IMG/VR virus record: IMGVR_UViG_3300006201_000013
Location: 6,905 to 70,904 of that record
DNA: 64,000 nt
From: a virus
Taxonomy: Duplodnaviria > Caudoviricetes
Strand: one strand, 5' to 3'
The stretch's first letter is position 1; each line of letters starts with the position of its first letter. A program made the position numbers and the translations under genes. The notes beneath the pieces were generated by a model. That model ran no database searches. It was not told where the DNA came from and saw only the letters and a program-made list of their open reading frames with translations. Positions 1-40,419 of this stretch are shown here, one piece after another.

Positions 1-481
1 CACTCGTTTGGAGGACGCCGTAGACGTTCTTGTTAATGGAGATTGCAATAGCAAGGCCGCCGAGGTAGCATCTCTAAACGGGCGTATCTTCGGATACAAT
101 ACGCTGCTGGATTTTTGGGCCCAGTTCGACCCATACGAAATGAACATCGCCCTTGCATCCAACGATATAGCCCTCGATTTGTTGAAGATGCCTGAGTTTC
201 AAAACTCGTCTGCTGGATTCAGCTTTCAGCAACCGCATTGTGTCACCATGCCATTTGGGCCTATGCTGATTCGTTCTAACGCTGTGCCACAAAACACAGT
301 GATTGGAATCGACAAGCGCTTTGCTCTTGAGATGGGGCAAGTTGGAGATGTAACAACGGAATACGATAAGCTCATCAACCGTCAATTTGAGAGAACTGCC
401 ATCACTATTATCAGTGGATTCTCAAAAATCTATGATGAAGCAAGTCGAGTTTTAAGCACCTCATTGCAAAAGAAACGGTAA
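1..481 (+). CDS. Major capsid-like protein, C-terminal part (5' truncated by the window edge)
   Basis: Frame is open from base 2 (TRLEDAVDVLVNGD...). LLDFWAQFDPYEMN, LLKMPEFQN and GIDKRFALEM..GDV..EYDKLINRQFERTAIT.ISGFSKI resemble the C-terminus of a clostridial phage capsid family as I recall it. Confidence 0.55.
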   Translation, partial: TRLEDAVDVLVNGDCNSKAAEVASLNGRIFGYNTLLDFWAQFDPYEMNIALASNDIALDLLKMPEFQNSSAGFSFQQPHCVTMPFGPMLIRSNAVPQNTVIGIDKRFALEMGQVGDVTTEYDKLINRQFERTAITIISGFSKIYDEASRVLSTSLQKKR

Positions 482-1196: not shown

Positions 1197-1358
1197 GTTA
1201 TGCGGTGGCGGAATAGGTAGACGCTAATGTCAGATAGGATGGCCTATCGGTTCGATTCCGACGGCTCTTAACCACGGTGAAATAGCCGACAGAGCAGGGG
1301 CTGATTTGGTACAAGGGAGTGGACATCCATGTAGGGTGCAAATCCTTGCCCGTATAAC
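1197..1358 (+). ncRNA. tRNA-like RNA with a 90-nt insertion replacing the anticodon loop
   Basis: Acceptor-like stem GTTATGCGG (1197-1205) / CCGTATAAC (1350-1358); Leu-type D arm TG-GCGGAATAGGTAGACGC; stem ATGTC (1227-1231) / GACAT (1322-1326); T-like arm GTAGGG-TGCAAAT-CCTTGC; no encoded CCA. Confidence 0.7.
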
Positions 1359-1754: not shown

Positions 1755-2567
1755 ATGGAAGGGAAATTCGTCGTTTATGATTCTCAGGGGGAACTGAACC
1801 TGCGGCAAATCGCAGACTCTGGTCAGTGTTTCCGACTGAAAGAGTATGATGCAGACAAGTTTATTGCGGTCACGGGTTCTCACGCCGTTGACATCCACCG
1901 TCGTGGCGACGTTTACATCTTCTGGTGCGATACCAATGAGTTCCAGGAAGTTTGGACTCCATACTTTGACCTGGATACAGACTACAGAACGTTTAAGGCT
2001 CAGATGCAGGACGACCCGTTCCTGCAGGAAGCACTCAATAGCGGCGGCGGAATCCGTATCCTCCGGCAAGACCTGTGGGAAACGGCGGTTACATTCACCA
2101 TCTCCCAGCGCAATAATATCCCACGCATTGCCAAGTCGGTCGAGACATTATGCAGTAATTTCGGGACTTCACTGAAGGAAATCGGCGGACAACAGGTCTA
2201 CGCCTTCCCAACCCCCGACCAGCTTCTCTGGCCGGATTTGTCAGCCGCTGCACTTGGATATCGAGAGCCATACATCAAAGAGCTGTGTCGGAAAGGTGAC
2301 GACGTGTGGCAAAGTCTCCCCAACCTAAGCGATGCTCAAGCCAAGAAAACACTGATTGCCATGAAGGGTATCGGTGAGAAAGTGGCCAACTGCATTATGC
2401 TCTTTGGGCTCCATCGGATGGACAGCTATCCTCGGGACGTGTGGGTCAACCGCCTGATTGATGACGTGTATCATGGAGACTTCGACCCTGGCAAATACGC
2501 CGGGTTCGCCGGGTATGTCCAGCAGTTACAGTTCTACCACTATCGGAATAAGACGTTCAGCTTTTAG
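1755..2567 (+). CDS. ogg: 8-oxoguanine DNA glycosylase (Ogg, HhH-GPD family)
   Basis: LRQIADSGQCFR, ILRQDLWE..VTFTISQRNNIPRI, HhH motif GIGEKVANC with Lys, and PRDVW with the catalytic Asp. Confidence 0.88.
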   Translation: MEGKFVVYDSQGELNLRQIADSGQCFRLKEYDADKFIAVTGSHAVDIHRRGDVYIFWCDTNEFQEVWTPYFDLDTDYRTFKAQMQDDPFLQEALNSGGGIRILRQDLWETAVTFTISQRNNIPRIAKSVETLCSNFGTSLKEIGGQQVYAFPTPDQLLWPDLSAAALGYREPYIKELCRKGDDVWQSLPNLSDAQAKKTLIAMKGIGEKVANCIMLFGLHRMDSYPRDVWVNRLIDDVYHGDFDPGKYAGFAGYVQQLQFYHYRNKTFSF

Positions 2568-2577
2568 AAGCAGATTG

Positions 2578-2605
2578 AAGCCGCCGCAAGGCGGCTTTTT
2601 TATTT
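2578..2605 (+). terminator. Intrinsic terminator
   Basis: AAGCCGCC-GCAA-GGCGGCTT followed by a T run, just after the glycosylase stop. Confidence 0.85.
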
Positions 2606-2628
2606 TAATATTCGCCGGAGGTGAGGTC

Positions 2629-3603
2629 ATGATACAAATTCTGGAACTGTTCGGAGGCGTTGGCTCTCCACGCTGTGCCCTCCGTAATCTTGGCATTCCG
2701 ACAAAGGCAATCGACTATGTGGAGATTGATGAGAAGGCGGTCAGGACTTATAACAGTATGTTCCGTGAGGAGCTTCCATACAAGACTCAAAGCGTTGTTG
2801 GGTGGAACCTCAGACCCGATATCCTTATTCATGGAAGCCCGTGCCAGGATATGAGTATTTCGGGCCATCAGGGAAAGGCAACTGCCGTCAACGGACGAGT
2901 AAATCGCGGGCGTGGCGCAGACGAGGGAAGCGGAACTCGCTCCAGCCTAATGTGGGAAACCATCCACATCATCCAGCAAATGGGAGACTGGAAGCCGAAA
3001 TATGTCATCTGGGAGAATGTCAAGAATGTACTCACCAGATACAACCGCCACAACTTCGACCGATACATATCTGAACTTGAAAGGCTTGGGTATACGAGCA
3101 ACTATGCAGTTCTCGATGCAAGGGACTTCGGTCTGCCACAGGCCAGAGAGCGTGTGTTCACCATCTCCACTTTGAACGAGGGGGTGTTTGACTTCGATAG
3201 CCTAATTCACACCCCGATGCAAGATATCCGGTCGTTCCTGCTGGATAACGCTGAGGTTCCAAGCGTTTACGATGTAACCCAGCCAAGCGTTCTGAGTGTG
3301 ATTGGCGAAACGGGTATTAGGCGAGCGACAATCATTCGAGACTATGCTTTTACTGTGACAACCAGACAAGACAGAACACCGGCTCAGGTGGTGGACTGCG
3401 GAAATGGTCGTTACCGATATCTGACTGAGCTTGAATGCTGGCGTCTGCAAGGATATACCGACGAAGATTATCGAAGGGCCGAGCAGGCTCAGAAACGGGT
3501 CGGTCGTTACTATACAGCCTTGTATAAACAGGCTGGAAATTCTATTGCAGTTCCAATTTTCGAGAGCATCTTTCGCAAGATGCTACTCGGGGAAACAGCC
3601 TAA
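2629..3603 (+). CDS. DNA (cytosine-5) methyltransferase, orphan
   Basis: LELFGGVG (motif I), HGSPCQD (IV), WENVKNV (VI), QARERVF (VIII), GNSIAV (X); GGAGGTGAGG RBS before ATG 2629. Confidence 0.92.
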   Translation: MIQILELFGGVGSPRCALRNLGIPTKAIDYVEIDEKAVRTYNSMFREELPYKTQSVVGWNLRPDILIHGSPCQDMSISGHQGKATAVNGRVNRGRGADEGSGTRSSLMWETIHIIQQMGDWKPKYVIWENVKNVLTRYNRHNFDRYISELERLGYTSNYAVLDARDFGLPQARERVFTISTLNEGVFDFDSLIHTPMQDIRSFLLDNAEVPSVYDVTQPSVLSVIGETGIRRATIIRDYAFTVTTRQDRTPAQVVDCGNGRYRYLTELECWRLQGYTDEDYRRAEQAQKRVGRYYTALYKQAGNSIAVPIFESIFRKMLLGETA

Positions 3604-3610
3604 GCACAAC

Positions 3611-3863
3611 TCAGACCAGCCAGCCGCTTTGTAAATTTGTTGCAGTACATACCTCGTTTCCCTGCAACAGCTTTTCGCCCAAGGCAAAAGTAAGAATTTG
3701 GAGCTACGTTCCCATCGCCCAGCAGTCCGCTTCGCGGACGAGACTTTTCTCACTCGCATTGCCAAGCAATGCTCGTGAGTGCTGGGCTCGGGAACGACGC
3801 AATGCACATCGAGCGGCCCACTCACAATCGCCGCCCCGATGCGGAAAGCGGCTGGCTGTTTGA
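3611..3863. ncRNA. Highly structured intergenic element (candidate ncRNA or ssDNA structure)
   Basis: Perfect 14-bp closing inverted repeat 3617-3630 / 3845-3858 enclosing several nested perfect stems (3638-3645/3662-3669; 3707-3713/3790-3796; 3717-3724/3780-3787; 3725-3739; 3756-3772). Confidence 0.65.
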
Positions 3864-3884
3864 AATAAAATCGGAGGTGCCCAT

Positions 3885-4376
3885 ATGATTGATGTTGGAG
3901 CAAAGAGTGTGTGTTTCGCCTGCGACGAGTGCGGTATTCACGAGCAGATTGAACGCAGAATGCAGGTCGCCCGTGAGCTCGGGGAAAATCTCCAATACGA
4001 CCATTGTAGTTGCGACAAAGTCGGAGATGAGTTTTGGGCCGGAGGGTACTGCGAGGACGCTTTTGCTGAGAAACCCTCCAAAAGAAATGAAGTCAGGCGC
4101 AAAACGGGCCGTGCGTACAGGCGCAAAATGCGCCGCAAGACCATCAAAAAGTATCGCATCCGGGATGGTCAGGGGTGGTCGTTTGGGCCACACATCAACG
4201 GGCATTGGGAGGGCGATGAATATGTCCTTGGCAATTACGTTGAATATCCCAGAAGCTCAAAAAACAAGGTGTTCTTCAAGCGTGTGTCGAACAAGGCAGT
4301 CCGCCGGAGTGAAAGCCTCCCGCTCAAGGGGAACGGATACCGTAAGGTGTTCGACTACTGGTGGACGATTACTTAG
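3885..4376 (+). CDS. Hypothetical protein, Cys-rich N-terminus and Arg/Lys-rich C-terminus
   Basis: GGAGGT RBS; CFACDEC and HCSC..C motifs; strongly basic second half. Confidence 0.7.
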   Translation: MIDVGAKSVCFACDECGIHEQIERRMQVARELGENLQYDHCSCDKVGDEFWAGGYCEDAFAEKPSKRNEVRRKTGRAYRRKMRRKTIKKYRIRDGQGWSFGPHINGHWEGDEYVLGNYVEYPRSSKNKVFFKRVSNKAVRRSESLPLKGNGYRKVFDYWWTIT

Positions 4377-4388
4377 GGAGGCGATTCA

Positions 4389-4619
4389 TTGACTTCGTAC
4401 TACGTTACAACCACATCATCCACCGTCAATGATTGGTGGCACCGCTCTCCATACCTCTCACACTCATACTACCAGCCATTCAATGTCTGTACGCCAACAA
4501 AAGAGCGGACGGTTTGCATCCCAAAAGAGGAGATGCAGCAGATGAGTAACGAAGAGTTTGACGCTGCGTTCAAAGACCTGCTTTTTGGTGGCAGCAAACA
4601 GGAGGGAGAAAATGCCTAA
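4389..4619 (+). CDS. Small hypothetical protein
   Basis: GGAGG RBS before a TTG start; overlaps the next start codon. Confidence 0.5.
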   Translation: MTSYYVTTTSSTVNDWWHRSPYLSHSYYQPFNVCTPTKERTVCIPKEEMQQMSNEEFDAAFKDLLFGGSKQEGENA

Positions 4620-5196
4620 TTTCTACATCTCAGACTGGCACTACAACCACAAGAATTGCTTGGCATTTGACAACAGGCCGTTCACATCTATTGAGCAAAT
4701 GAACGAAGCGCTCGTAGAGCGCTGGAACAACGTGGTCAAGCCGGGCGACACAGTGTATGTGCTTGGCGATATGTTCTGGTGTGACTCAGAGATGGCAATC
4801 TCTGTGCTGGATTCTCTGTCTGGTAGGATTTTCCTGATTAAGGGGAACCACGACCGTTGTCACACTAAAAAGTTCACTGACAAGTTCGTAAAAGTCGCAG
4901 AATACATGGAGATTAAAGATAACGGACGCAATGTAGTGCTAAGTCACTATCCTATCCCATGTTTCAAAAATCATTTTTACGGATGGTATCATCTGTATGG
5001 TCATGTCCACAACTCATTCGAGTTCAACATGATGGAGCACGATAAATTTCTCATGCAGGAATTGTACTCCCGCCCATGCAATATGTTTAACGTTGGTGCC
5101 ATGATGCCATGGATGGACTACACACCACGGACGCTCGAACAGGTCGAATTGCTGTCCAATGGGTGGAAAATTGAATCTGTTGGAAAAAACGAGTAG
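4612..5196 (+). CDS. Calcineurin-like metallophosphoesterase
   Basis: ISDWH, LGDMF, KGNHD, LSHYP, LYGHVH motifs. Confidence 0.9.
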   Translation: MPNFYISDWHYNHKNCLAFDNRPFTSIEQMNEALVERWNNVVKPGDTVYVLGDMFWCDSEMAISVLDSLSGRIFLIKGNHDRCHTKKFTDKFVKVAEYMEIKDNGRNVVLSHYPIPCFKNHFYGWYHLYGHVHNSFEFNMMEHDKFLMQELYSRPCNMFNVGAMMPWMDYTPRTLEQVELLSNGWKIESVGKNE

Positions 5197-5249
5197 GTAT
5201 AAACCCCTGTCCGACAGCGGTTTCTCCTGTGCTTGATGGGGTGTTCTTA

Positions 5250-5258
5250 TGCTACAAT
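5250..5258 (+). promoter_or_regulatory. Extended -10 promoter candidate upstream of the desulfurase operon
   Basis: TGcTACAAT about 25 nt before the GGAGGG RBS region and ATG 5284; no clear -35. Confidence 0.45.
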
Positions 5259-5283
5259 TTATAAAGCTGCAAGGAGGGCGTCA

Positions 5284-6444
5284 ATGATTTATCTTGATGC
5301 AGCGGCTACGACCCCGATTGACCCAAGGGTCTTGGAATCTATGATGCCGTACCTGACGACCCAATACGGAAACGCCGGTACGCTCTACAGATTCGGACGG
5401 GCGGCCAACGAAGCGATTCAAGAATCGAGAGCACGGGTGGCCCGGTTTATCGGCGCAGACCCAAACAGCATCATTTTCACATCCGGCGGCAGCGAGGCCA
5501 ACAACCTTGTGTTCCACGGCGTAAGAGACTATCTCAAGCGCATTGGGCGCACACATATCCTCGTTTCTGCCGTGGAGCACGACAGTGTTCTCAGAGCCGC
5601 AGAGAGCCTTATGAAAGACGGATTTGATGTCGAGTATATTCCCGTACTCGGCAACGGAACCGTGCCTTCTGCGGCTGTTGAGCGGGCTTTACGGGCAGAT
5701 ACCGGGCTGGTGTCCGTCATGTATGTCAACAATGAAACCGGCGTAGAGAATCCGGTGGGCGATATTGGGAGCATCTGCTTGAAGCACGGCGTTCTGTTCC
5801 ATACGGACTGTGTACAGGCCGCCGGGTGCCACCCCATCGACACCACCAGTATCGGCTGTGATTTCCTGTCCATCTCGGCCCACAAAATCCATGGCCCCAA
5901 GGGCACGGGCGCTCTCTATGCCAAGGATTCCTCCATCCTATCTCCTCTCATCTATGGCGGACACGACCAGGAGTTTGGGCTACGGGGCGGAACGGAAAAC
6001 GTGGCCGGTATCGTTGGGTTTGGACGGGCGTGCGAGATTGCCAGCGCCCAGCAGAATGAGGACAGAACGACCGTCTCCATGCTCAAGCAACGGTTCGTGA
6101 CAGAGCTTCAGAGCCATCTCGGTGGCGATACCGTACATATCAACGGGACATCCCTTCTGGCTCCAGGGAAAACGGTCAATCTCCGAATTGACGGTGTTGA
6201 TAACGAGACCCTTATCCTGATGCTGGACAATGCGGATGTCTGCATTGCCGCCGGGTCTGCCTGTCAGAGCCACGAGTCCAAACCGAGCCATGTGCTCACG
6301 GCAATGGGGCTTACTACAGAAGAAGCAAGGAGTTCCATCCGTGTCTCGTTCTCCAGAATGAACACGGTGGATGAGGTTATGGACGCAGCCCACACTCTGG
6401 CATCTTTTGCCGATGTGCTGCGCTCACACAGAACGGAGGAATAG
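5284..6444 (+). CDS. iscS: Cysteine desulfurase, group I (IscS/NifS type)
   Basis: YLDAAATTP, FTSGGSEANN, HTDCVQA, SAHKIHGPKG (PLP Lys), GGTENVAG, AGSAC (catalytic Cys). Confidence 0.93.
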   Translation: MIYLDAAATTPIDPRVLESMMPYLTTQYGNAGTLYRFGRAANEAIQESRARVARFIGADPNSIIFTSGGSEANNLVFHGVRDYLKRIGRTHILVSAVEHDSVLRAAESLMKDGFDVEYIPVLGNGTVPSAAVERALRADTGLVSVMYVNNETGVENPVGDIGSICLKHGVLFHTDCVQAAGCHPIDTTSIGCDFLSISAHKIHGPKGTGALYAKDSSILSPLIYGGHDQEFGLRGGTENVAGIVGFGRACEIASAQQNEDRTTVSMLKQRFVTELQSHLGGDTVHINGTSLLAPGKTVNLRIDGVDNETLILMLDNADVCIAAGSACQSHESKPSHVLTAMGLTTEEARSSIRVSFSRMNTVDEVMDAAHTLASFADVLRSHRTEE

Positions 6445-6447
6445 GCT

Positions 6448-7470
6448 ATGACAATCGAGCAAATCAAAGAAATGGTGGCGGGTTCCGAGTACGATTTCCT
6501 CAGAACCAACCCACATCTGAAAGACAGAATCATCTTCCTGACGCTGGGCGGCAGCTACTCATACGGCACAAATGTGGAGACATCAGACGTGGATGTTCGT
6601 GGCTGTGCCTTAAACACTCCCTCTGATTTGCTCGGCCTTACCAATTTCGAGCAGGTCGTTCATACGCAGACCGACACCACGGTCTATTCCTTCAACAAGC
6701 TCATCAAGCTCCTGCTCAACTGCAATCCCAACACCATCGAAATGCTGGGGTGCAAACCGGAACACTACTTCCTGCTCACTGATACCGGCAGGATGATGAT
6801 TGAGAATCGGAAGCTGTTTATGTCCAAGCGTGCAGTCCACTCCTTCGGTGGGTATGCCACGCAGCAGCTCCGGCGGTTGGAGAACGCCCTTGCCAGAGAC
6901 AAAATGCCGCAGAGTCGGTGGGAGGAGCATATCCGTAACTCCATGGAGCGTGCAGTGCAGTCCTTCAAAAGTCGCTACACCAAGTTCGACAAGGGCAGCT
7001 TTATTCTCTACACTGACGATAGCCCACGAGAGGATTTAGACCGTGAGATTTTCGCCGACATTACCTTGAAGAAATTCCCGGCCAGGGAGTTCAACAGCAT
7101 GATTAACGACCTGACCAACGTGCTCAGCGACTATGAAAAGTTGAACCACAGGAACAATAAAAAGGACGACAACCACCTCAACAAGCACGCCATGCACCTC
7201 ATCCGGCTGTACCTGATGTGCCTGGACATCCTGGAGAAGGGCGACATCGTTACCTACAGGGGCAACGACCTCGACCTGCTCATGAGTATCCGGCATGGGG
7301 AGTACCAGAAAGAGGACGGGACGTACCGGCAGGAGTTCTTCGATATGGTTAGCGAGTTCGAGGCTCGACTGGCCTATGCCAAGGAGAACACGGCTCTACC
7401 GGAGAATCCCGACATGAAGCGTGTCGAGGAGTTCATCATAGAAGTGAACAGGAGGTCTTTGGATGGGTAG
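6448..7470 (+). CDS. DNA polymerase beta-superfamily nucleotidyltransferase (RlaP / T4 NrdC.11-like)
   Basis: GGSYSYGTN..TSDVDVRG (GS..DxD), LL.CNPNTIEML, FGGYA..QL, KHAMHLIRL. Confidence 0.82.
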   Translation: MTIEQIKEMVAGSEYDFLRTNPHLKDRIIFLTLGGSYSYGTNVETSDVDVRGCALNTPSDLLGLTNFEQVVHTQTDTTVYSFNKLIKLLLNCNPNTIEMLGCKPEHYFLLTDTGRMMIENRKLFMSKRAVHSFGGYATQQLRRLENALARDKMPQSRWEEHIRNSMERAVQSFKSRYTKFDKGSFILYTDDSPREDLDREIFADITLKKFPAREFNSMINDLTNVLSDYEKLNHRNNKKDDNHLNKHAMHLIRLYLMCLDILEKGDIVTYRGNDLDLLMSIRHGEYQKEDGTYRQEFFDMVSEFEARLAYAKENTALPENPDMKRVEEFIIEVNRRSLDG

Positions 7471-8827
7471 AATTCATATCCCTCGTGGCGCAAGCGATGT
7501 TATGACCGTACTGGCGCTGGATGGATTCGACTCATATGTGGTAGGCGGGTGCGTCCGAGACAGCCTGCTCGGCCTGGAGCCGCATGATTGGGACATCTGC
7601 ACCAACGCAACACCCGTGGAGGTTCTGGAAACTTTTGCGAGACGCAATATTAAGACTATCGAGACCGGTATTAAGCATGGCACAGTTACGGTCTGTCTGG
7701 GCGACGCCGGAGAACAGTACGAGGTCACGACGTTCCGTATTGACGGTGAGTATTCTGACAGCCGCCACCCGGACAGTGTGAGTTTCACACCAAGTCTTCG
7801 AGAGGATTTGGCGAGACGTGACTTCACCATGAACGCCATGGCCTACAACGAAGTCGATGGCCTGATTGACCCGTTCGGTGGTGAGAAATCCTTGCGGGAC
7901 AATGAAATTTCTTGTGTAGGCAATCCGGCGGACAGGTTCCAAGAGGATGCTCTGCGGGTTATGCGGGCTCTCAGGTTTGCTTCTACCTACGGATTCTCTA
8001 TCCAGGAGGGCACGGCCAAGGCGATTCGCCAATTTGCACCACGCCTGAGCAACATCGCCGCAGAACGTGTCCAGTCGGAATTGAACAAACTCCTCCTGGG
8101 TGGCGGTGTGCTCCAAGTTTTGCTGGACTACAGCGATGTCATGGCGGTCATCATCCCAGAGCTTGCTCCATGTATCGGATTCGACCAAAAGAACCGCTAT
8201 CATGAGTACACGATTTACGACCATATCGTTCATGCTGTCGCTAACTACACCGGGGACGACCTTTCAGTGAAGGTGGCGCTCCTGCTTCATGACATTGGGA
8301 AGCCTCAGTGTTACACCGAAGATGAACGGGGTGGGCACTTCCATGGCCATGGTGTTCCAAGCCATGACCTGGCCGACATCGTGACTAAGCGGCTGCGGTA
8401 TGACAATAAGACCAGGGACGAAGTGCTCACACTGGTTCTGTATCATGACTCCGTTATCGAGCCGACCTACAATGTGGTTCGCCGGTGGTTGAACAAGATT
8501 GGAGAAACGAACTTCCGCAAACTCCTCCAGGTTCGGATGGCCAATATCAAAGCTCACGCAAAGGATACTCAGGCGTCCCGAATCGAGCGGTGTTTGGCGC
8601 TCCACGATATTCTGGACGAAGTCATAGCGCAGGAGCAGTGTTTTTCCATGAAGGATTTGGCTATCCGAGGCAAAGATGTGATGTCGTTCGGCGTGCCGGA
8701 AGGTAAGCTGGTCGGAGATACGTTGCGGCACATCCTCGATACGGTTATCAACGGGGAAATCCCGAACGAAATCGAGCCTCAAATACAGGCCGTCCAGCAG
8801 TATTTGGCGGTGCGTGCTCATGAGTAG
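7463..8827 (+). CDS. cca: Class II CCA/tRNA nucleotidyltransferase with HD domain
   Basis: VGGCVRD, DWDICT, EVTTFR, EDLARRDFTMNAMA, EDALRVMRALRF, ERVQSEL, LLHDIGKP. Confidence 0.92.
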   Translation: MGRIHIPRGASDVMTVLALDGFDSYVVGGCVRDSLLGLEPHDWDICTNATPVEVLETFARRNIKTIETGIKHGTVTVCLGDAGEQYEVTTFRIDGEYSDSRHPDSVSFTPSLREDLARRDFTMNAMAYNEVDGLIDPFGGEKSLRDNEISCVGNPADRFQEDALRVMRALRFASTYGFSIQEGTAKAIRQFAPRLSNIAAERVQSELNKLLLGGGVLQVLLDYSDVMAVIIPELAPCIGFDQKNRYHEYTIYDHIVHAVANYTGDDLSVKVALLLHDIGKPQCYTEDERGGHFHGHGVPSHDLADIVTKRLRYDNKTRDEVLTLVLYHDSVIEPTYNVVRRWLNKIGETNFRKLLQVRMANIKAHAKDTQASRIERCLALHDILDEVIAQEQCFSMKDLAIRGKDVMSFGVPEGKLVGDTLRHILDTVINGEIPNEIEPQIQAVQQYLAVRAHE

Positions 8828-9041
8828 TCCTAAGTATCCAAAGGGCGAGCGAGTCTGGGTCGGCTATTACGATATCGGTCACGAGCTTCGCTTTATCCTG
8901 ACAAGTAAAGAGTCCTCCCGAGAATATTTCTTTCTGTATGAGCTGGTTGACGGCGCATTCAAGAAACTCGGGAGGGCTCGTTCTCCCAAGGAGCTTGAAG
9001 CGAAGTTCGATGTAAATAAGAAATTGGGGGTGGTGCGTTGA
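8820..9041 (+). CDS. Small hypothetical protein
   Basis: Start overlaps the cca stop; stop overlaps the next start. Confidence 0.65.
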   Translation: MSSPKYPKGERVWVGYYDIGHELRFILTSKESSREYFFLYELVDGAFKKLGRARSPKELEAKFDVNKKLGVVR

Positions 9042-9652
9042 CGGACTTTGCCTACGACTGTTTACAGAAAAAACGTCTCGCCCGTCAGGCATTACATAAA
9101 AAGAACGGCAGCAAAAGCCGCCGCTGTCCCATGTCTACAGACCATATGACCGAAAAACAGTGGAAGGAAAGGAATGGTAAAGTCGTGTCCGTGAGTTTTG
9201 ACAAGCCCACATCGTGGGATAACTTCAGAGAGCTGTCGAAGGGAGCGCAGGAGGAGTACCTGCGATGTCTTTCCACGACCTACGGGGCAAACGCCACAAA
9301 CCTCGCAGAGATGTTTGATGTGAGCGTGTCTACCATCCGACGCCACATCCAGTCTGCCAATTTGGACATCAAGTTCCATGTGGGACACTCAATGAACGCA
9401 GAGCAGCGTGCGGCCTGGGAGGCATTTCTGGGTGGCACAGCAGCCTCCCCTGTTCCTCAAACGGTCTGCGAGCCAAAACTGGAGGAACCGCCAAAACTTC
9501 ATGTCGATACATCTATGCGGATGAACCGGTTCTCTCTGAGCTTTTCCGGCGACATCAACGTCGATATGATTGCGAACTCTCTCAAGCACATCCTGGGAGG
9601 AAACGCTACAGGGCAGGTCGAAATCGTGTGCAGCCTCGTGGGAGGTTGTTGA
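9038..9652 (+). CDS. Hypothetical protein with possible HTH
   Basis: NATNLAEMFDVSVSTIRRH is HTH-like; start overlaps the upstream stop. Confidence 0.6.
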   Translation: MTDFAYDCLQKKRLARQALHKKNGSKSRRCPMSTDHMTEKQWKERNGKVVSVSFDKPTSWDNFRELSKGAQEEYLRCLSTTYGANATNLAEMFDVSVSTIRRHIQSANLDIKFHVGHSMNAEQRAAWEAFLGGTAASPVPQTVCEPKLEEPPKLHVDTSMRMNRFSLSFSGDINVDMIANSLKHILGGNATGQVEIVCSLVGGC

Positions 9653-16957: not shown

Positions 16958-18289
16958 ATGAGAGCGAGCGAAGACATCGCGAGAGTGGACTGCGAGGCCG
17001 GTATCATCGCCACGCTGTTCTATCACCCAGACTACTCCTTCTACTCCGAAGACCTGCTCCCAAACCACTTCACAAACATTGAGAATAGGTATATCTACCA
17101 AGCGATTTGTAGCTTAGCACGGAAGGATATCACGCAAATCGACCCTTACATCATCATTCAGGAGCTGGAGACCAACGAGGCGACCCGTCATCTGGCCGGT
17201 GAGATTACGCCGGAGCAGCTCTACACCATCGTGGACAACACGGATGCGCTGGTTCGCAACACGGTTGAGGGGTATCAGCTCTTGACAAAGGCCGTAAAAG
17301 ACGCAGCCTTTCGGCGTGATACTTTCCAGCAGTTGAGAGAGTGCCAGCAGTTGTGCCTCCAGAAGTCCAGCGACAACATTGAGCAGCGCATCTACCAGCT
17401 TCTGGATGATGTGATGATGGAGTTTTCAGCAGCCAACGATGTTCCACCGTATGCGGAGGTTGTAGATAAGTGCTGGGAGGAGATTGAAAACCGGCAGGGC
17501 AGCGGATACGCCGGTATTCCCTTCAAGTTCCCGGCTCTGAACGACTACGCCACCATTGAACGGGGAGAGCTGTTTATCTTCGGGGCGGAGCAGAAGCAGG
17601 GTAAGAGCATGATGCTCCTCAACTGTGCGGTTGACCTGCTCAAGCAGGATTACGCCGTTTTGTACCTGGACAGTGAGCTGAACACACGGCTTTTCACAGC
17701 CAGAATCCTCGCCCACCTGTCCGGTATTGAGTATAAGCGGCTGACATCCGGCAATTACACCGAGGATGAGAAGAACCGTATCATGCAGGCTAAGGAGTGG
17801 CTGAAAACCCGCAAGTTCACCCACATCTACATTCCAACTTTTGACCAGCAGAGCATCTACACCGCCGTTAAGAAGGTGAAACACACTCAGGGGCTTGACG
17901 TTCTGATTGTGGACTACTTCAAGGGCAAAGGCGAAGGCGACGCATTCGACAGCTATCAAGAGCTTGGGCGTTTCGTCGATATGGTGAAGAACCAGATTTG
18001 TGGCGAGATGAACATCGCAGGAATTGGGGCCGCACAGGCAACGGTGACAGGTAAACTTGCCGACAGCGCCAAAATTGCCCGCAACGCCTCCACGATTGCG
18101 ATGATAACCGACAAGACCCCGGAGGAAATCGAAGCCGACGGGGCGGAATGTGGCAACAAGAAGCTCCGAGTCACTGTAAACCGCAACGGAATGCAGATGA
18201 CACAGGATGAATACATAGACCTGCTCTTTGACGGCAACCACATCCGTTATGAGCAGGCTAAGCAGCACATCCCCCAGACCCCTTATTGA
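16958..18289 (+). CDS. dnaB: Replicative DnaB-family helicase
   Basis: EAGIIATL, Walker A GAEQKQGKS, YLDSEL, LIVDYFK, NRNG. Confidence 0.9.
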   Translation: MRASEDIARVDCEAGIIATLFYHPDYSFYSEDLLPNHFTNIENRYIYQAICSLARKDITQIDPYIIIQELETNEATRHLAGEITPEQLYTIVDNTDALVRNTVEGYQLLTKAVKDAAFRRDTFQQLRECQQLCLQKSSDNIEQRIYQLLDDVMMEFSAANDVPPYAEVVDKCWEEIENRQGSGYAGIPFKFPALNDYATIERGELFIFGAEQKQGKSMMLLNCAVDLLKQDYAVLYLDSELNTRLFTARILAHLSGIEYKRLTSGNYTEDEKNRIMQAKEWLKTRKFTHIYIPTFDQQSIYTAVKKVKHTQGLDVLIVDYFKGKGEGDAFDSYQELGRFVDMVKNQICGEMNIAGIGAAQATVTGKLADSAKIARNASTIAMITDKTPEEIEADGAECGNKKLRVTVNRNGMQMTQDEYIDLLFDGNHIRYEQAKQHIPQTPY

Positions 18290-18330
18290 TTATCAGGCTA
18301 ATTATAATTCATACGAAGGGAGGAGACGGC

Positions 18331-19311
18331 GTGGAACTGTCTGACCTGATAGAGTCGATTGATATCCTGGACTATATCTCGCAGTACACAGAGTTCACAG
18401 AGAAAAACGGTGAATATTGGGCTCTGTCGCCGTTTAAGGACGAGGACACGCCGTCTTTCTCCGTTCGTAGGGAGACAAATTCGTTTTACGATTTCTCTTC
18501 CGGCATCGGAGGCAATGTTTTGACCTTCGTTCGGTACTACGACAAGTGCGGATACACTGAAGCCATCGAAAAGCTGAAAAAATTCAGTGGTTTTGACGGA
18601 ACGGCGACATTCCGCAAGAAGCTGTCGGTGGCAGAGGTCGCAAAACGCTTCTCTCCGCCTAAAAAGAAGCCAAAACAGGCGAAAAGCACGGTTTTGAGCG
18701 ATGACTACATGGAGCGGTACGAGAAGCGGCCTGACAAATTGGCTGTTTGGGAGCAAGAAGGCATCTCCAGGGCGTCTTTGGATAAATTTCAGGTTCGTTA
18801 CGACAGTTTCTCCGACCGGCTGGTCTATCCGATACGGAGTCCAGAGGGCAAAATCGTCAATATAGGCGGCAGAACGTTGGACGAGCACTGGAAGGAGAAA
18901 AATCTCCGAAAATACACCTATTTCATGTCCTGGGGCGAACTGAAGACCATCTATGGGCTTGCTGAAAACATCGAAAACATCAAAAAACAGGGTGAAATCA
19001 TCCTTTTCGAGGGTTGCAAGTCAGTTTTGATGGCCGACACATGGGGAATCAACAACGCAGGGGCTATCTTAACCTCTCATTTGAACCCGAATCAGATGAA
19101 ATTGCTGATTGAATTGGGTTGTAGGGTGGTTTTTGCGTTAGACAAAGACGTTTCCATACGAAGCGACCACAATATAGCCCGTCTAAAGCAGTTTGTGAAT
19201 GTGGAATACATATGGGACGGTGCCGGGCTGCTCAATGAGAAGGACAGCCCGGTAGATAAGGGGCCGGAAGTGTGGAAGAAACTCTACGAAAGGAGGCTAT
19301 CATGGCGTTGA
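18331..19311 (+). CDS. dnaG: DNA primase (DnaG-like, Toprim)
   Basis: PF..EDTPSF N-domain, RLVYPI, GGRTL, LFEGCKSV, FALDKD. Confidence 0.85.
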   Translation: MELSDLIESIDILDYISQYTEFTEKNGEYWALSPFKDEDTPSFSVRRETNSFYDFSSGIGGNVLTFVRYYDKCGYTEAIEKLKKFSGFDGTATFRKKLSVAEVAKRFSPPKKKPKQAKSTVLSDDYMERYEKRPDKLAVWEQEGISRASLDKFQVRYDSFSDRLVYPIRSPEGKIVNIGGRTLDEHWKEKNLRKYTYFMSWGELKTIYGLAENIENIKKQGEIILFEGCKSVLMADTWGINNAGAILTSHLNPNQMKLLIELGCRVVFALDKDVSIRSDHNIARLKQFVNVEYIWDGAGLLNEKDSPVDKGPEVWKKLYERRLSWR

Positions 19312-22300
19312 CAAGACCAACATCAGTTTTTTTGTACCATGTACACTCGGACTACAGCCTGCTGGACTCTGCGACAGACTTCAAGGAGTATGTTGACCTG
19401 GTAAAAGAGTCCGGCGGTACAGCAATCGCCTCAACGGAGCATGGGCTCCCAAGAGGGTGGATTTCTAAAAAGCTGTATTGCGACAAAGTTCGGTGCTATA
19501 GGTGCGATACTTGTACCCGGTCGGAGTGTGCATACAGGGATGATGTAATCCGTCTGCCGAAAGATAAGGGCGGTAAAGACCTTTGCCCTGGTCATCTGAC
19601 GGGCGAAAGCATGGAGGCGACTCCGGCTGGGATAAAGTTCGTCCATGGAGTTGAGATTTACCTCACAGAGCAACTGGAGCCGAAGGTCAGAGACAACTAC
19701 CACACGGTTCTGCTTGCCAAAAACGAGGCCGGAATCCGAGAGTTGAACAAACTCGTCTCTATCTCCAGTGACAAAGCGCATTCCTACTACACCAACCGTA
19801 TCACCTTTGAGGAGTTCCTGGGGATTTCGGACAACATCATCAAGACCAGCGCCTGTTTGGCCAGTCCACTGAATAAGCTCAGCGAGGATAACCCCTGGTA
19901 TGAACGGCTGCTCCGCCACTACGACTATCTGGAGGTACAGCCGCACAACCACCCAGACCAGATTGCTTTCAATCAGAAGCTGGCGAGGTTCTCGAAGAAG
20001 TACGGTATCCCGCTGGTAGCTGGGACGGACACCCACAGCTCCTCCAAGTATAAAGCTGAGTGCCGCAATATCTTGCTCAAAGCGAAGCGGCAGTCTTACG
20101 GTGACGAGGACGCCTTTGACCTGTCTTATAAGACAGTTGATGAACTGCTGGATATGTTCGCCGTCCAGGGCGCTTTGACCGAAGAGGAGTATTTTGCCGC
20201 AATCCAGAACACCAATGAGATTGCGGCAGCCTGCGAGAACTTCTCTCTGGACGGCTCCATCAAGTATCCCATCCTATACGGTTCTCAGGAAGAGGACGAG
20301 AGGATTTTCGAGGCCAGAGCGTGGGAGTCACTTGATGAAAAGCTGGCGTCCGGCATTATTCCTGAGTCCCAGGAGCAGGCGTTCCGCACTGCCATCGCCG
20401 AAGAGCTCCGGGTTTTCAGCAAGCTGAAGATGAGCGGATTTATGCTCTCCATGTCAGACCTCATTCGCTGGTGTAAAGAGAACGGTATGGCCATCGGAAC
20501 AGCTCGTGGCTCTGTCGGCGGGTCGAGGGCGGCCTATGTGACAGACATTATCGACCTGAACCCCGAGACATGGCATACCGTGTTCTCCCGGTTCTGCAAC
20601 GAAGACCGTGAGGAAATCGGGGACATTGACGTAGACGTAGTTTACGATGACCGTCCCAGGATTTTTGAGTATATTACCAGCCGGTTTGGGGCGGACAAGA
20701 CCGCCCGTGTGGCGGCTTACGGCACTCTGGCGGATAAAAGCGTCATTGACGAGGTTTGCCGGGCGCTGGCGAACGGCGGCGAGAAGGATAAATACTCCAT
20801 CGAGAACACCAAGAAAATCAAAAAGGCTTTCGAGGAGAACCCGGAGGCCGCCAAGAAGAGTTTCCCCGAGGTTTTCTACTACTATGACGGTCTGGCTGGA
20901 ACAAAAATCTCTCAGTCTGTCCACCCTGCGGGCATGGTCATCAGTCCAATCACGCTGGATGACAACTATGGGGTTTTTGTCAAGGACGGCGAAACGTGCC
21001 TGCTCATGGACATGGAGGAGGCGCACGAGGTCGGCGTGGCGAAGTACGACTTCCTTGCGCTGAAGACAGTCAAGGTCATTCGTGACACCTGCAACTATAT
21101 CGGTATCCCGTATCCGAGCACCCACATGGTCAACTGGGACGACCAGGAAGTATGGAAGGATATGTGTTCCAACCTGACGGCAATCTTCCAGTTTGAAAGT
21201 GCGTTCGCCGCAGACTGCTTCAAGAAGTTCCAGCCGTCCAACATTTTTGATATGTCGCTGGTCACGGCCTGTATCCGCCCATCCGGCACGTCCTACCGTG
21301 ACCAACTGCTTTCCCGAAAACAGCACCACAACCCATCTGAGATTATCGACGAGCTTCTTGCCGACAACCTGGGTTACCTGATTTATCAGGAGGACACCAT
21401 CAAGTTCCTCCAGCAGATTTGCGGCCTGTCCGGCAGTGAAGCTGATAACGTCAGGCGTGCCATAGGCCGCAAGCAGAAGGACAGGCTGGATACCGCTCTG
21501 CCCTCTATCCTTGAAGGATATTGCTCCAAGTCATCCAGAGAGCGCAGCGTCGCCGAGAACGAGGCCAAGGAGTTCCTGCAAATCATTGAGGACAGCGCTT
21601 CGTACCAGTTCGGCTATAACCACAGCGTCGCCTACTGCCTGCTTGGATACCTATGCGGCTATTTCCGCCACTACTACCCCATGGAGTTCATCACAGCGTT
21701 TCTGAACAATGCTCAGAACGACGATGACATCTCCAACGGCACCGAACTGATGAAGGTCTATGGCGTAAAAATCGCCAATCCCAAATGGGGTGTGTCCCGT
21801 GGCGGCTACTTCTTCGACCGGGAGAATAAGACCGTCTACAAAGGTATGAGTTCTATCAAGTATGTGGGCGAGGCGGTTTCCAACGAACTGTTTGAACTGT
21901 CTCAGTCTAAGCAGTATACATACTTCATGGAGCTTTTGGCGGACATGGAGGAGCATACCAGTCTCGACTCCCGGCAGTTAGACCTGCTCATCAAGATTGA
22001 CTTCTTCAAGGAGTTCGGAAATCAGCGTGAGCTGTTCCGAATCGTGGAGATGTTTAATATGTTCAAGAAGGGTCAGGCCAAGCAGATTAAGAAGACGCTG
22101 GTTGACGGCACCCCGCTGGAGCCCATTGTGAAAAAGTATGCGGTGGGTGTGACCCGTTCCGGCGGCGAGGCAAAGAGCTACACACTCCTTGATGTTATGT
22201 CTATCCTCAGAGGGGCGGAGGAGGCGGTCAAGAGCCTCCATATGGAAGACCTGAACGACATCACGAAGGTTCGGAACTTCTACGATGTCATGGGGTACAT

Positions 22301-23198: not shown

Positions 23199-23941
23199 CA
23201 GCAGCAGAATATGGTTCAATGGAGAACCAGGCAATGGCCGCATTGCAGCAGCTTAGAGAGAAAGGCGTCAGCAGGGATGATATTGGAATCCTGATGAGCC
23301 GTGAGGTATACGACATGGCAAAAGCCGGGGGTAACTCGGCATATGCGGTCAGTGTCGAAAATTTCCGGGCAATCTATTGGGGATACGACATCTACGTCAT
23401 CGCCGAAGATTCTCCGCCGATATTCAGTCCAGTCATTACAAGGTTCTCAGACAACTTCGGCGTACTCCAATTCGATGCGGGGACGTTCCTTATCTCAGAG
23501 TCAGACGATGGGACGCTTCGCGTTTATACGAAACCAACACAGGAACACGCATTTTTCTGCGAAACTGAGTTCACCGTATGCCAAGCACATCAAATGGAGA
23601 GAGTTACCTTCGCAGACCGGATTCGTGCCGGACAGGAGCGGGAACGGGGGGAACGGGGGCAGAGGATGTATATGCCTTTGCACGAATGGTCTGACTGGAT
23701 GCCGTATACCGCACTTCAGCCTGATTTTCTCGCCAGTCAGCCAACCTGGAGCGAACTTGAGTGGCAGCTTGACGAGATAGTAGCTACTATGCAACGTGGA
23801 ACTGGGAGCGCAACTCCTAAAAAGAAGAAGGCCCCTCCCAAAAAGGATTGGGACGAGCGGCTCACCCCGGAAGACACCAAGGAACTTGATGAGTTCCTGA
23901 ACAGCCTTACAAGAAAGGGTACGCTGGAATCAGCAACGTAA
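23195..23941 (+). CDS. Hypothetical protein
   Basis: GGAGGTG RBS; start overlaps the upstream stop. Confidence 0.7.
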   Translation: MTAAEYGSMENQAMAALQQLREKGVSRDDIGILMSREVYDMAKAGGNSAYAVSVENFRAIYWGYDIYVIAEDSPPIFSPVITRFSDNFGVLQFDAGTFLISESDDGTLRVYTKPTQEHAFFCETEFTVCQAHQMERVTFADRIRAGQERERGERGQRMYMPLHEWSDWMPYTALQPDFLASQPTWSELEWQLDEIVATMQRGTGSATPKKKKAPPKKDWDERLTPEDTKELDEFLNSLTRKGTLESAT

Positions 23942-24022
23942 GAATCAACCAACAAACCATGGAGAGCCCGGAGCTGCAACAGCTTCTGGGCTCTTTCTCA
24001 TGGACAGTAGAGAGGTAGAACA

Positions 24023-38608: not shown

Positions 38609-39016
38609 TTATGCTTTCGCTCCAACCAACTTGGCGATATGCCGGAGCACGCCAATGTCTGCGTTGAAGAACGCATGGTTCCAGAGCCAGTATTCGTCGT
38701 CATCAGCACGCTTATATGGCTGACAGGCCGGGTCGTTCCACACCCTGTCCCAGCGTTCCTGATGCGCCTCATCGCCCCTGCCGTTGGTCTTGGCAAGGGT
38801 TTTCATGATGGCCTGGGTCAGCCGCCCACGCTCCATCCCGTGCCCATCATCATTCCTGGTAAAGAACTGGTGGGCAGTCTCGCAATCCTCGTAACACACG
38901 ATGCCGTTATTGTAGATGATGATACCGTCCTCACACTCCAGCTCAGTCATAGCCGGGATGTTGACCGGGCCGCAGAGAACATCTTTCTTGAGACGCCTAT
39001 GCGCGATGTACTTCAT
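38609..39016 (-). CDS. Hypothetical protein downstream of the RT
   Basis: Start overlaps the 3' end of the RT gene. Confidence 0.7.
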   Translation of the reverse strand: MKYIAHRRLKKDVLCGPVNIPAMTELECEDGIIIYNNGIVCYEDCETAHQFFTRNDDGHGMERGRLTQAIMKTLAKTNGRGDEAHQERWDRVWNDPACQPYKRADDDEYWLWNHAFFNADIGVLRHIAKLVGAKA

Positions 39017-40166
39017 GGGTTTCTCCTCTCATTCTGAAATTCTCGATGCGCTCCGGCGAGAAGCCGAAGATGGCATAGAAAAGCCGCCGAAGTTTCAGAA
39101 CCCGGCGGTGGTCGTTGTAGCCTCCGAAGTAGGCCAATATTCCATTAACGGAAGTCCAGAGGTCTTCGTAGGTCATCTCGCCTCTTTCAATCTTACCGTA
39201 AAACGCTTTGATTTTCCTACGGGCCCGCTTGATTCCGTCACGGTTGCCGCACATGACAACCTTGCCAGTCTCGGTCAAAGTGAACTTAGCCTTGCAGTAT
39301 TTGAAGGGCTTGGTCAACGGAATAATCTTTGACTTTGCAACGCTCACCGTCAGCTTCAAGCTGGTCGCTTTGGCAACGACAAGCGCCATCACTTCTTTCG
39401 GGTCTTGCCCCGGAGGCACGATGATGTAATAGTCGTCCATGTAATGTCCGGCGCACTCCATACCAAGCTGACATTTGATGTAGTTGTCCAATGCAGATGG
39501 GAAGGCTATCATTTCAGCCTGGCTCGGCTCAACGCCAAGCGGCAGACCTTTGTCTCCCGGCACAGTCTTAATCACATCGTCGCCTATCTTCTTGATATCG
39601 GGATGTAGCAGTAGTTGCTCATGCCGTTTGAACAATTCCTCATGCGACACAGACGGGAAGAACTGCTTGAAGTCAATCAAGATGATATAGCCCTCACGGC
39701 CATAATGGCGGAAATGCCAACGCAAATCTTCTTTGAGTACCCGCTTGGAAAACTCAAATCCCTTTCCGGGTAGGCTGGCTCCATTGTTGTAAATCATACT
39801 CGGGCGGTATAATGGGAGCAAAACCTTTTGGGTGAAGACCTTATGGATTTGGCGGTCTTGGATTCTCGGTGCGTCGATGGGGCGTATTTTGCCTCGCTCA
39901 TGTAGTGTGAAATGAACATAGGGTGCTGGCTCCCATCTGTATTCCATCAAAAGCCTTCTTCTCTTAGCCGTCCCAGAAAACAGATGAAGCTCAAATCTCT
40001 GTGCGCTGTTCTTCCAGCGCACACCGTTACAGCATTGCTTCCCGGCCCGGTACATATCATTAAATCCAAACACATCTTGGATTCCGCCGACTTCAATGCT
40101 GCGCCGGATTCTCTGTTCAATTCTCTTGGCTACCCTCCTTTGGTAGCGTCCTTTTCGTCTTGACAT
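38997..40166 (-). CDS. DGR reverse transcriptase
   Basis: GKIRPI, DRQIHK, IDFKQFFPSV, GLPLGVEPSQ, YMDD; no intron maturase or endonuclease domain; adjacent to TR and avd. Confidence 0.95.
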   Translation of the reverse strand: MSRRKGRYQRRVAKRIEQRIRRSIEVGGIQDVFGFNDMYRAGKQCCNGVRWKNSAQRFELHLFSGTAKRRRLLMEYRWEPAPYVHFTLHERGKIRPIDAPRIQDRQIHKVFTQKVLLPLYRPSMIYNNGASLPGKGFEFSKRVLKEDLRWHFRHYGREGYIILIDFKQFFPSVSHEELFKRHEQLLLHPDIKKIGDDVIKTVPGDKGLPLGVEPSQAEMIAFPSALDNYIKCQLGMECAGHYMDDYYIIVPPGQDPKEVMALVVAKATSLKLTVSVAKSKIIPLTKPFKYCKAKFTLTETGKVVMCGNRDGIKRARRKIKAFYGKIERGEMTYEDLWTSVNGILAYFGGYNDHRRVLKLRRLFYAIFGFSPERIENFRMRGETHEVHRA

Positions 40167-40419
40167 AATAGTGTTGTTCGCCCTCCGTACAGATGTCTTG
40201 TAGGGTGCCGTCTAATCTGCTTGACCACTACACATGAAACGGGGTAAGGCACGTTGCCCGCCATGCACGCTACTGTTGTCCAGTGCGGCGTTCGTGCAGA
40301 GGTATCAGAGGGACAGTTTTGGACTTTCGTCACGGGAAGTGTTTCTCCTTTCGTAAAGGTCGTGTTTCACCCTACTTTGGGCTACTGTCTGTTGACCCAT
40401 AAGCCATTGCTGGCCTTAC

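Follow-up and report, generated by a model that had tools for sequence, protein, structure and literature searches.

Genes at the locus

We analyzed a stretch of 64,000 nucleotides of phage DNA (the window), which corresponds to bases 6905-70904 of the IMG/VR virus contig IMGVR_UViG_3300006201_000013 (70,904 bases; CheckV completeness 58%), and examined four consecutive genes near its start. The genes, hereafter PE, CD, RlaP and CCA, encode a phosphoesterase, a cysteine desulfurase, a nucleotidyltransferase and a tRNA CCA-adding enzyme. An earlier note, made from the letters of the window, had named these four co-oriented genes and read them as one cassette that rescues tRNA from host defenses. 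All four are present on the plus strand, and domain searches agree with the identities given to them:

4612-5196, plus strand: PE, calcineurin-like metallophosphoesterase, 194 amino acids; ATG start with an AGGAGG ribosome-binding site upstream; Pfam and PHROG matches
5284-6444, plus strand: CD, class I (IscS/NifS-type) cysteine desulfurase, 386 amino acids; ATG start; Aminotran_5 and phrog_12787
6448-7470, plus strand: RlaP-family Pol-beta nucleotidyltransferase, 340 amino acids; PF10127, and phrog_388 over its full length
7463-8827, plus strand: CCA, class II CCA-adding enzyme with a C-terminal HD phosphohydrolase domain, 454 amino acids; Pfam domains and phrog_2244

PE and CD are 87 nucleotides apart. 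The tight coupling described earlier was confirmed: CD and RlaP are 3 nucleotides apart, and RlaP overlaps CCA by 8 nucleotides. Because the plus strand carries nearly all genes in the first 34 kb or so of the window, the co-orientation of the four genes is unremarkable. The tight packing also runs on beyond them: the next small open reading frame (ORF) overlaps the stop codon of CCA and is itself overlapped by an ORF of 204 amino acids.

RlaP-CCA and PE-CD are distributed independently

We fetched 160 IMG/VR loci with each of the four proteins as query and mapped the four genes on all of them. Presence was then scored over the full sequence of 42 related genomes, 25 of which are at least 90% complete. 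RlaP was found within 10 kb in 30 of 33 CCA lineages and was adjacent in 24 of them. All 25 genomes carrying CCA also carried RlaP, and the 8 genomes without RlaP all lacked CCA (Fisher p 2e-4); the distance between RlaP and CCA was <3 kb in 24 of those 25. Cronobacter phage GAP31 and Vibrio phage D181, which are unrelated, likewise carry both genes, at a distance of about 2 kb from each other.

CD was present in 23 of the 42 genomes and showed no association with CCA (odds ratio 0.76, p 0.76) and, if anything, a negative trend with RlaP. Four genomes that are 91-100% complete (G017, G018, G019 and G039) carry CD, mostly together with PE, but lack RlaP, CCA, the RNA ligase gene RtcB and Thg1. 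CD co-occurred with PE (odds ratio 5.3, p 0.02), and the two were within 3 kb of each other in 15 of the 19 genomes holding both.

The order PE-CD-RlaP-CCA was found in many contigs of the window's own clade, whose proteins are 60-80% identical. In other loci PE-CD followed RlaP-CCA (L040 and L117), lay 13 genes ahead of it (L103), or stood alone before the same downstream genes (L046 and L160), and many lineages had RlaP-CCA without PE-CD. CD was always located at the end of a variable region, just before a backbone block, with RlaP-CCA inserted between the two in some lineages only. The block consists of ORFs of 75, 204, 129, 121 and 77 amino acids followed by the repressor region, and its first two genes in the window are:

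8820-9041, plus strand: small ORF of 73-75 amino acids, without cysteine and without a family match; the first backbone-block gene after CD or CCA in relatives
9038-9652, plus strand: ORF of 204 amino acids with a weak helix-turn-helix match; the second backbone-block gene, called from TTG at 9038, its true start being uncertain

Because CD marks the edge of the variable region, and RlaP-CCA follows it only as an optional insertion, we attribute the four-gene order to lineage synteny, not to a functional unit. The presence matrix of the 42 genomes and the gene-order survey both show that the four genes were not gained, lost and moved together. The stretch probably consists of two independent gene modules, RlaP-CCA and PE-CD, lying side by side in a variable early region. 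Of the cassette proposed earlier, the RlaP-CCA pair stands, being conserved and belonging to an RNA-repair island in relatives, but CD and PE vary independently across the genomes. Co-conservation of all four genes, on which the earlier note had let its proposal stand or fall, was thus not found.

We also detected in-frame fusions of PE and CD (P0113 and P0115, 539 amino acids; locus L274, 1438-3057), with RlaP and CCA downstream. These were seen in at least 3 contigs, and the copies differ by several substitutions. The junction is at a short shared MMP motif, and the tail of PE and the first 20 residues of CD are lost. In another protein, P0105 (577 amino acids), CD is fused to the C-terminal part of RlaP, of which half is present and the catalytic domain is missing. 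Such fusions could be taken as 'Rosetta stone' evidence of joint function; we gave them little weight, because the shared junction motif and the lost parts make them look like deletion derivatives. The predicted complex of CD with PE scored 0.00, which gives no verdict either way and was not counted as evidence.

Several points weigh against a division into two modules. The 42 genomes are kin and were found via the same four proteins, and the Fisher tests ignore both phylogeny and ascertainment. The four-gene order kept in the window's clade is compatible with co-function there, and the in-frame fusions of PE and CD have retained RlaP-CCA behind them. Also, given that RlaP has been characterized with ligases, its partner in this phage could be RtcB instead of CCA.

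Predicted enzymes of the RlaP-CCA module

The catalytic motifs of all four proteins are intact, as the earlier note had read them, and are conserved in the alignments of relatives. RlaP matched PF10127 with 67 bits (cut-off 23) and phrog_388, and its catalytic residues (G34-G35-S36, D47-x-D49 and D76) were unchanged in an alignment of 36 relatives. The AlphaFold 2 model (mean predicted local distance difference test score, pLDDT, 86) consists of a beta/alpha nucleotidyltransferase core (residues 28-101) and, after it, long helices (residues 128-339). Its fold matches were kanamycin-nucleotidyltransferase-like; the structure of PfRlaP was not found in the Protein Data Bank (PDB) copy compared, and the sequence of RlaP gave no detectable match to solved PDB chains.

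RlaP was reported to add 1-2 nucleoside monophosphates to an RNA 3'-OH, with a preference for damaged tRNA, and to be needed for over-damaged tRNA to regain aminoacylation after repair (2025 preprint, PMC12776372). That work studied RlaP with ligases on anticodon-loop damage, not with CCA enzymes, and lists NrdC.11 of phage T4 as a member of the family (PMC12776372). In the nearest annotated relatives of RlaP, from Clostridioides phage AR1086-1, a Mexican faecal contig and Bacillus phage 0524phi7-1, the other three genes were not within the fetched loci, which cover 6-9 kb on either side.

CCA carries the domains PolyA_pol, PolyA_pol_RNAbd, tRNA_NucTran2_2 and HD, and belongs to phrog_2244. 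The head motifs A (GGCVRD at G28-D33, and D42-x-D44), B (RRDF, R118-F121) and D (EDxxR, E161-R165) were unchanged in 30 relatives, among which the HD motif (H254, H276-D277 and H328-D329; Pfam HD 30.8 bits, cut-off 22) was conserved at 90% or more. Residues 13-214 aligned to the Geobacillus CCA enzyme (PDB 1miv) with E 4e-58, compared with E 7e-29 for the poly(A) polymerase 3aqm. The score on the CCA-enzyme model NF009814, 279.1, was just short of the cut-off of 290, whereas the scores on the poly(A) polymerase model PcnB (160.9, cut-off 305.65) and on the A-adding model (75, cut-off 1440) were far too low. By similarity, then, the enzyme is unlikely to be a poly(A) polymerase, an identity that the earlier note had listed as fatal to its proposal. 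The comparison favors a CCA-adding enzyme, and the choice among CCA, CC-only and A-only addition is one that cannot be read from the sequence.

Predicted enzymes of the PE-CD module

CD matched Aminotran_5 with 262 bits as well as phrog_12787, and aligned end to end with IscS2 (PDB 4r5f; E 8e-83). Its pyridoxal-phosphate lysine K201 and catalytic C327, in a G-S-A-C loop, are intact and unchanged in the aligned relatives. It stayed below the NCBIfam equivalog cut-offs for NifS (387 against 530.75), DndA (352.6 against 480) and IscS (327.7 against 643.2). In a tree with cellular homologues, the phage copies formed one clade with full support in the approximate likelihood ratio test (SH-aLRT 100); the sister group of this clade among the cellular paralogues did not resolve. 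Because the phage copies form one strongly supported clade, CD is considered an old phage gene and not the result of repeated recent capture from hosts. The clade spans many phages of gut Clostridia, in which CD is usually found just downstream of a phosphoesterase of the Aquifex aq_1665 type and at times fused to it in frame. Among GenBank phages, the gene is almost absent except in uncultured faecal contigs.

The nearest cellular relatives of CD (40-46% identity) occur in three settings: Rrf2-desulfurase-MnmA, desulfurase-IscU(-MnmA), and Dnd/Ssp-like loci with PAPS_reduct (phosphoadenosine phosphosulfate reductase domain) in Bacteroidota. The first two correspond to the Firmicute iscR/cymR - iscS/yrvO - (iscU) - mnmA operons, whose desulfurases have Rrf2, NifU_N and MnmA as neighbors. 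Unlike those operons, the phage gene stands without these partners, in a clade of its own, and is paired with a metallophosphoesterase.

PE matched Metallophos with 29.9 bits (cut-off 21.5) and phrog_547. Its metal-binding motifs are intact (D8/H10, G52-D53, G78-N79-H80-D81, H112 and G130-H131-x-H133), and the five motifs, DxH, GD, GNH[DE], H and GHxH, were unchanged in an alignment of 17 relatives. The best PDB sequence match was Aquifex aq_1665 (1xm7; E 9e-12), which was also the best fold match of the AlphaFold 2 model (pLDDT 88), followed by LpxH, Mre11 and Vps29, and also YfcE and MJ0936. Neither the PDB sequence comparison nor the fold comparison gave a specific similarity to characterized RNA 3'-phosphatases or cyclic phosphodiesterases, and the earlier assignment of PE as an RNA end-healing enzyme is therefore not supported. 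By sequence and fold, PE is placed in the Aquifex aq_1665 / phrog_547 family, and nothing in these comparisons links PE specifically to RNA ends. The family is present in >1,500 GenBank phage records. In Vibrio phage Cody, a gene of the family adjoins an RNA ligase, an ATPase and genes of the NAD-reconstitution type; this neighborhood, the sole pointer from context to an RNA role of the family, is a hint.

RNA-repair genes and tRNA genes around the locus

Upstream of the window, at 0.5-6 kb before its first base, the contig carries a Macro domain gene (contig 834-1289), RtcB (3183-4406), a DUF3307 gene (4687-5076) and a gene for a PP-loop protein resembling phosphoadenosine phosphosulfate (PAPS) reductase (5444-6424). 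The RNA ligase gene RtcB is thus 3.7 kb before the window start, on the same strand as RlaP and about 9 kb upstream of it. The earlier note had seen no ligase and had for that reason favored repair of 3' ends alone. Its observation holds for the window, but the argument fails because it depends on where the window edge happens to fall. RlaP directly adjoins RtcB in one relative (L101), and RtcB was found in just 8 of the 34 RlaP-carrying relatives.

Thg1, a tRNA 5'-end repair enzyme, is encoded three genes ahead of PE in the main clade of relatives and co-occurred with CCA among the 42 genomes (odds ratio 5.1). Further upstream, relatives carry an island (in the complete relative G001, loci L185 and L186, bases 29,000-50,000) with an Rnl-type ligase containing a PHA02142 OB domain, a Band-7 gene, an ATP-dependent DNA ligase, RtcB, and NAMPT-like, Prs-like and isochorismatase genes, followed by tRNA arrays. 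In its gene content, this island resembles the published phage pathway of NAD reconstitution together with RNA repair. The Rnl1 profile PF09511 gave no match in any genome nor in the control, so that absence of Rnl1 is not shown by it.

A search of the rest of the contig, which had been suggested for ligases and tRNAs, yielded RtcB but no tRNA gene: ARAGORN reported none in the contig, with introns allowed or not, and no tRNA-like Rfam match was obtained near the four genes. A tRNA-shaped RNA with a 90-nucleotide insert, noted earlier at window 1197-1358, likewise had no match by ARAGORN (introns allowed) or Rfam (E up to 1). Relatives hold 15-20 tRNA genes near the island, and genomes with CCA had more tRNA genes than the others (median 12 vs 4, p 0.02). 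In G001 all 15 of 15 tRNA genes already encode the CCA end, which suggests that the phage CCA enzyme mends tails and is not needed to make them. The tRNA genes of G001 include those for tRNA-Lys(UUU), tRNA-Glu(UUC) and tRNA-Gln(UUG), the classes that bear 2-thiouridine at position 34 (s2U34).

The phage and other features of the window

The phage origin of the DNA, as assumed in the earlier note, agrees with the gene content of the window and with its source in an IMG/VR virus contig. The window encodes a DnaE-type polymerase, DnaB helicase, primase, Erf, an exonuclease and NrdD with its radical-SAM (S-adenosylmethionine) activase NrdG, as well as a serine integrase, an endolysin, tail proteins and the reverse transcriptase of a diversity-generating retroelement with an RT-2 RNA, a content that suggests a large temperate phage. 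Close relatives are complete at 123-133 kb. A nucleotide similarity search against GenBank phages gave practically nothing. The best matches of CD in the cellular database were phage-like contigs binned with metagenome-assembled genomes of Oscillospiraceae or Clostridia, and one match was a prophage within a 426-kb Eubacteriales contig; because of these matches the host is most likely a member of the gut Clostridia. Judging from these sequences, the contig is most likely a fragment of a temperate phage of about 120 kb that infects gut Clostridia, with Oscillospiraceae-like hosts.

At window 1755-3603 (plus strand), a gene for a C-5 cytosine methyltransferase comes immediately after one with an OGG-like glycosylase N-terminal domain, and the OGG-like gene was found again downstream of CCA in another lineage (L014-L017). 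At window 2-481 (plus strand), the C-terminal part of a 311-amino-acid ORF matches the end of the 'major head protein' phrog_3922 (E 6e-32); it sits in the early region, distant from the structural genes. The reverse transcriptase gene of the retroelement (phrog_1423; window 38997-40400, minus strand) adjoins the Rfam RT-2 match at 40160-40400 (128 bits).

Relatives G002 (18235-19329 and 23365-23976) and G024 carry a second, more divergent desulfurase copy about 4 kb from a PAPS_reduct gene, possibly a Dnd-like module apart from the copy beside PE.

Discussion

We infer the action of the RlaP-CCA module, and any link of it to host defense, from the activities known for the families of its proteins. 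RlaP and the CCA/HD enzyme would form a pair that rebuilds the 3' end of tRNA. The HD domain, or possibly another phosphoesterase, would clear the end of a 2',3'-cyclic phosphate, a 3'-phosphate or a pyrophosphate that blocks it; RlaP would then add 1-2 untemplated nucleotides to a 3' end trimmed past the reach of the CCA enzyme, which would complete the tail. Because the phage has RtcB, and its relatives Thg1 and an Rnl-type ligase, the pair may be one tool of a broader RNA-repair kit. PE and CD would be a separate and looser pair, one that persists in phages without any of the RNA-repair genes tested.

Several roles are conceivable for CD, which would most likely feed sulfur into host pathways. 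Supply of Fe-S clusters to NrdG and other radical-SAM enzymes of the phage is a possible role, held tentatively: radical-SAM (Fe-S) enzymes were found in every genome checked, including NrdG here, and also in many phages without CD. Formation of thiouridine in tRNA is about as likely or slightly less so, with other roles making up the remainder. That PE and CD together constitute a phage-specific two-enzyme module of undescribed function, for example modifying or repairing tRNA or another nucleic acid in a sulfur-dependent way to aid infection or evasion of defense, seems doubtful, though it would fit a clade that so often travels with an aq_1665-type phosphoesterase.

Other explanations of the locus start from the same data. 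The pair RlaP-CCA might do housekeeping, repairing the 3' ends of the many phage-encoded tRNAs in the course of normal exonuclease turnover, without any link to defense. The larger number of tRNA genes in genomes with CCA and the tRNA genes clustered near the island in relatives speak for it, and so does the precedent of E. coli, where tRNA genes encode CCA and Cca serves end repair. We nevertheless consider it unlikely, since the host must already own a CCA enzyme and ordinary turnover of CCA needs no RlaP. Moreover, the neighbors in relatives, RtcB, Thg1, Macro and the NAMPT-like and Prs-like NAD-reconstitution genes, are typical counter-defense cargo, and two genomes with CCA (G008 and G010, both only 78% complete) have 2 tRNA genes each. 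The single cassette of the earlier note, in which PE and the HD domain heal, RlaP and CCA rebuild, and CD restores thiolation (s2U34, or 4-thiouridine at position 8, s4U8) against abortive defenses that target tRNA, is less probable still. It draws support from the gene order kept in the window's clade, from nearest cellular relatives of CD that include desulfurases adjoining MnmA (21 loci) or IscU-MnmA, and from the s2U34-bearing tRNA classes encoded by G001; also, if RlaP were to fill in for an excised wobble base, the U it inserts would have to be thiolated anew. However, CD is associated with neither CCA nor RlaP and persists in near-complete genomes without the RNA-repair genes tested, and its presence is not linked to the number of tRNA genes (12 vs 7, p 0.9). 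No profile match over the cut-off was obtained for MnmA or NifU_N in five genomes (ThiI and TusA were not searched for), the tree, whose branching is unresolved here, does not place the phage CD clade with the MnmA-linked clade, and the fold of PE gives no RNA-specific match.

It could also be argued that CD works with the PAPS-reductase-like PP-loop protein encoded upstream on the contig in a DndA/DndC- or SspA/SspD-like module that protects phage DNA by phosphorothioation, PE and RlaP-CCA being unrelated neighbors. The 353 bits of CD on the DndA model, 11 of the nearest cellular homologues, which adjoin PAPS_reduct and helicase genes in Bacteroidota, and the PAPS_reduct gene that adjoins CD in L140 and lies about 4 kb from the second desulfurase copy in G002 and G024 are consistent with this. 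But PAPS_reduct is present in only 6 of the 23 genomes with CD, the DndA score falls short of its cut-off (480), partners of the DndD/E or SspB/C kind were not seen, and in the tree the phage copies of CD stand apart from the Dnd-linked clade. We regard this explanation of the locus as very improbable, and DNA phosphorothioation is unlikely as a general role of CD.

The RlaP-CCA module has clear parallels in known systems. RlaP, a CCA-adding enzyme, Thg1, RtcB/Rnl ligases and calcineurin-like/HD phosphatases have been named as parts with which phages restore RNA ends (Iyer et al. 2021, PMC7824862), and all of these RNA-repair parts are found in this phage or its close relatives, as in the jumbo-phage kits for RNA repair and NAD-centered counter-defense described there. 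Those kits tie RlaP to ligases, whereas in our temperate Clostridia phage of about 120 kb its translation is coupled to that of CCA; cysteine desulfurase has 0 mentions in that work. The RtcB-RlaP-RtcA operons of Pseudomonas (PMC12776372) have in common with our locus the PF10127 family, the catalytic aspartates, the two-domain build of nucleotidyltransferase and helices, and an RtcB gene, which is present in the same phage; in contrast to those operons, RlaP here is about 9 kb from RtcB and overlaps the CCA gene.

The Cca enzyme of E. coli is a class II CCA enzyme whose HD domain has phosphatase and 2',3'-cyclic phosphodiesterase activity. The phage enzyme likewise has a head domain and an intact H...HD...D motif, and the tRNA genes of G001 already encode CCA. 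Unlike E. coli Cca, its head is closest to those of Firmicute CCA enzymes (1miv; NF009814, 279 against 290), the score on the E. coli type being 126 against 451. Phage T4 repairs tRNA-Lys cut by PrrC with Pnkp and Rnl1. The RlaP-CCA module would similarly be part of a phage-encoded reply to tRNA damage by healing and sealing, but the ligase here is RtcB; Pnkp and Rnl1 were not detected, with the control search with PF09511 also matching nothing.

The damage that the pair might answer can be sought among toxins that act on the acceptor end. MenT-family (DUF1814) nucleotidyltransferases extend tRNA acceptor ends (PMC10435456), and the abortive-infection toxin AbiEii, whose mechanism is reported as unknown, is in the same superfamily. 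The toxSAS enzymes pyrophosphorylate the CCA end (bioRxiv 10.1101/2021.04.30.441581, 10.1101/2024.07.05.602228) and are implicated in anti-phage immunity. Toxins of the MenT family and toxSAS enzymes are plausible targets for RlaP-CCA.

Taken together, the locus is a gut Clostridia example of a phage tRNA/RNA repair kit already predicted in the literature, and it introduces no new principle. The four-enzyme model of 'heal, rebuild, re-thiolate' should not go forward as a unit, and the desulfurases of the phage clade pose a question of their own, separate from that of RlaP-CCA. The placement of RlaP beside a CCA enzyme offers a concrete, testable order of action by which phages may rebuild tRNA tails that are too short for the CCA enzyme alone.

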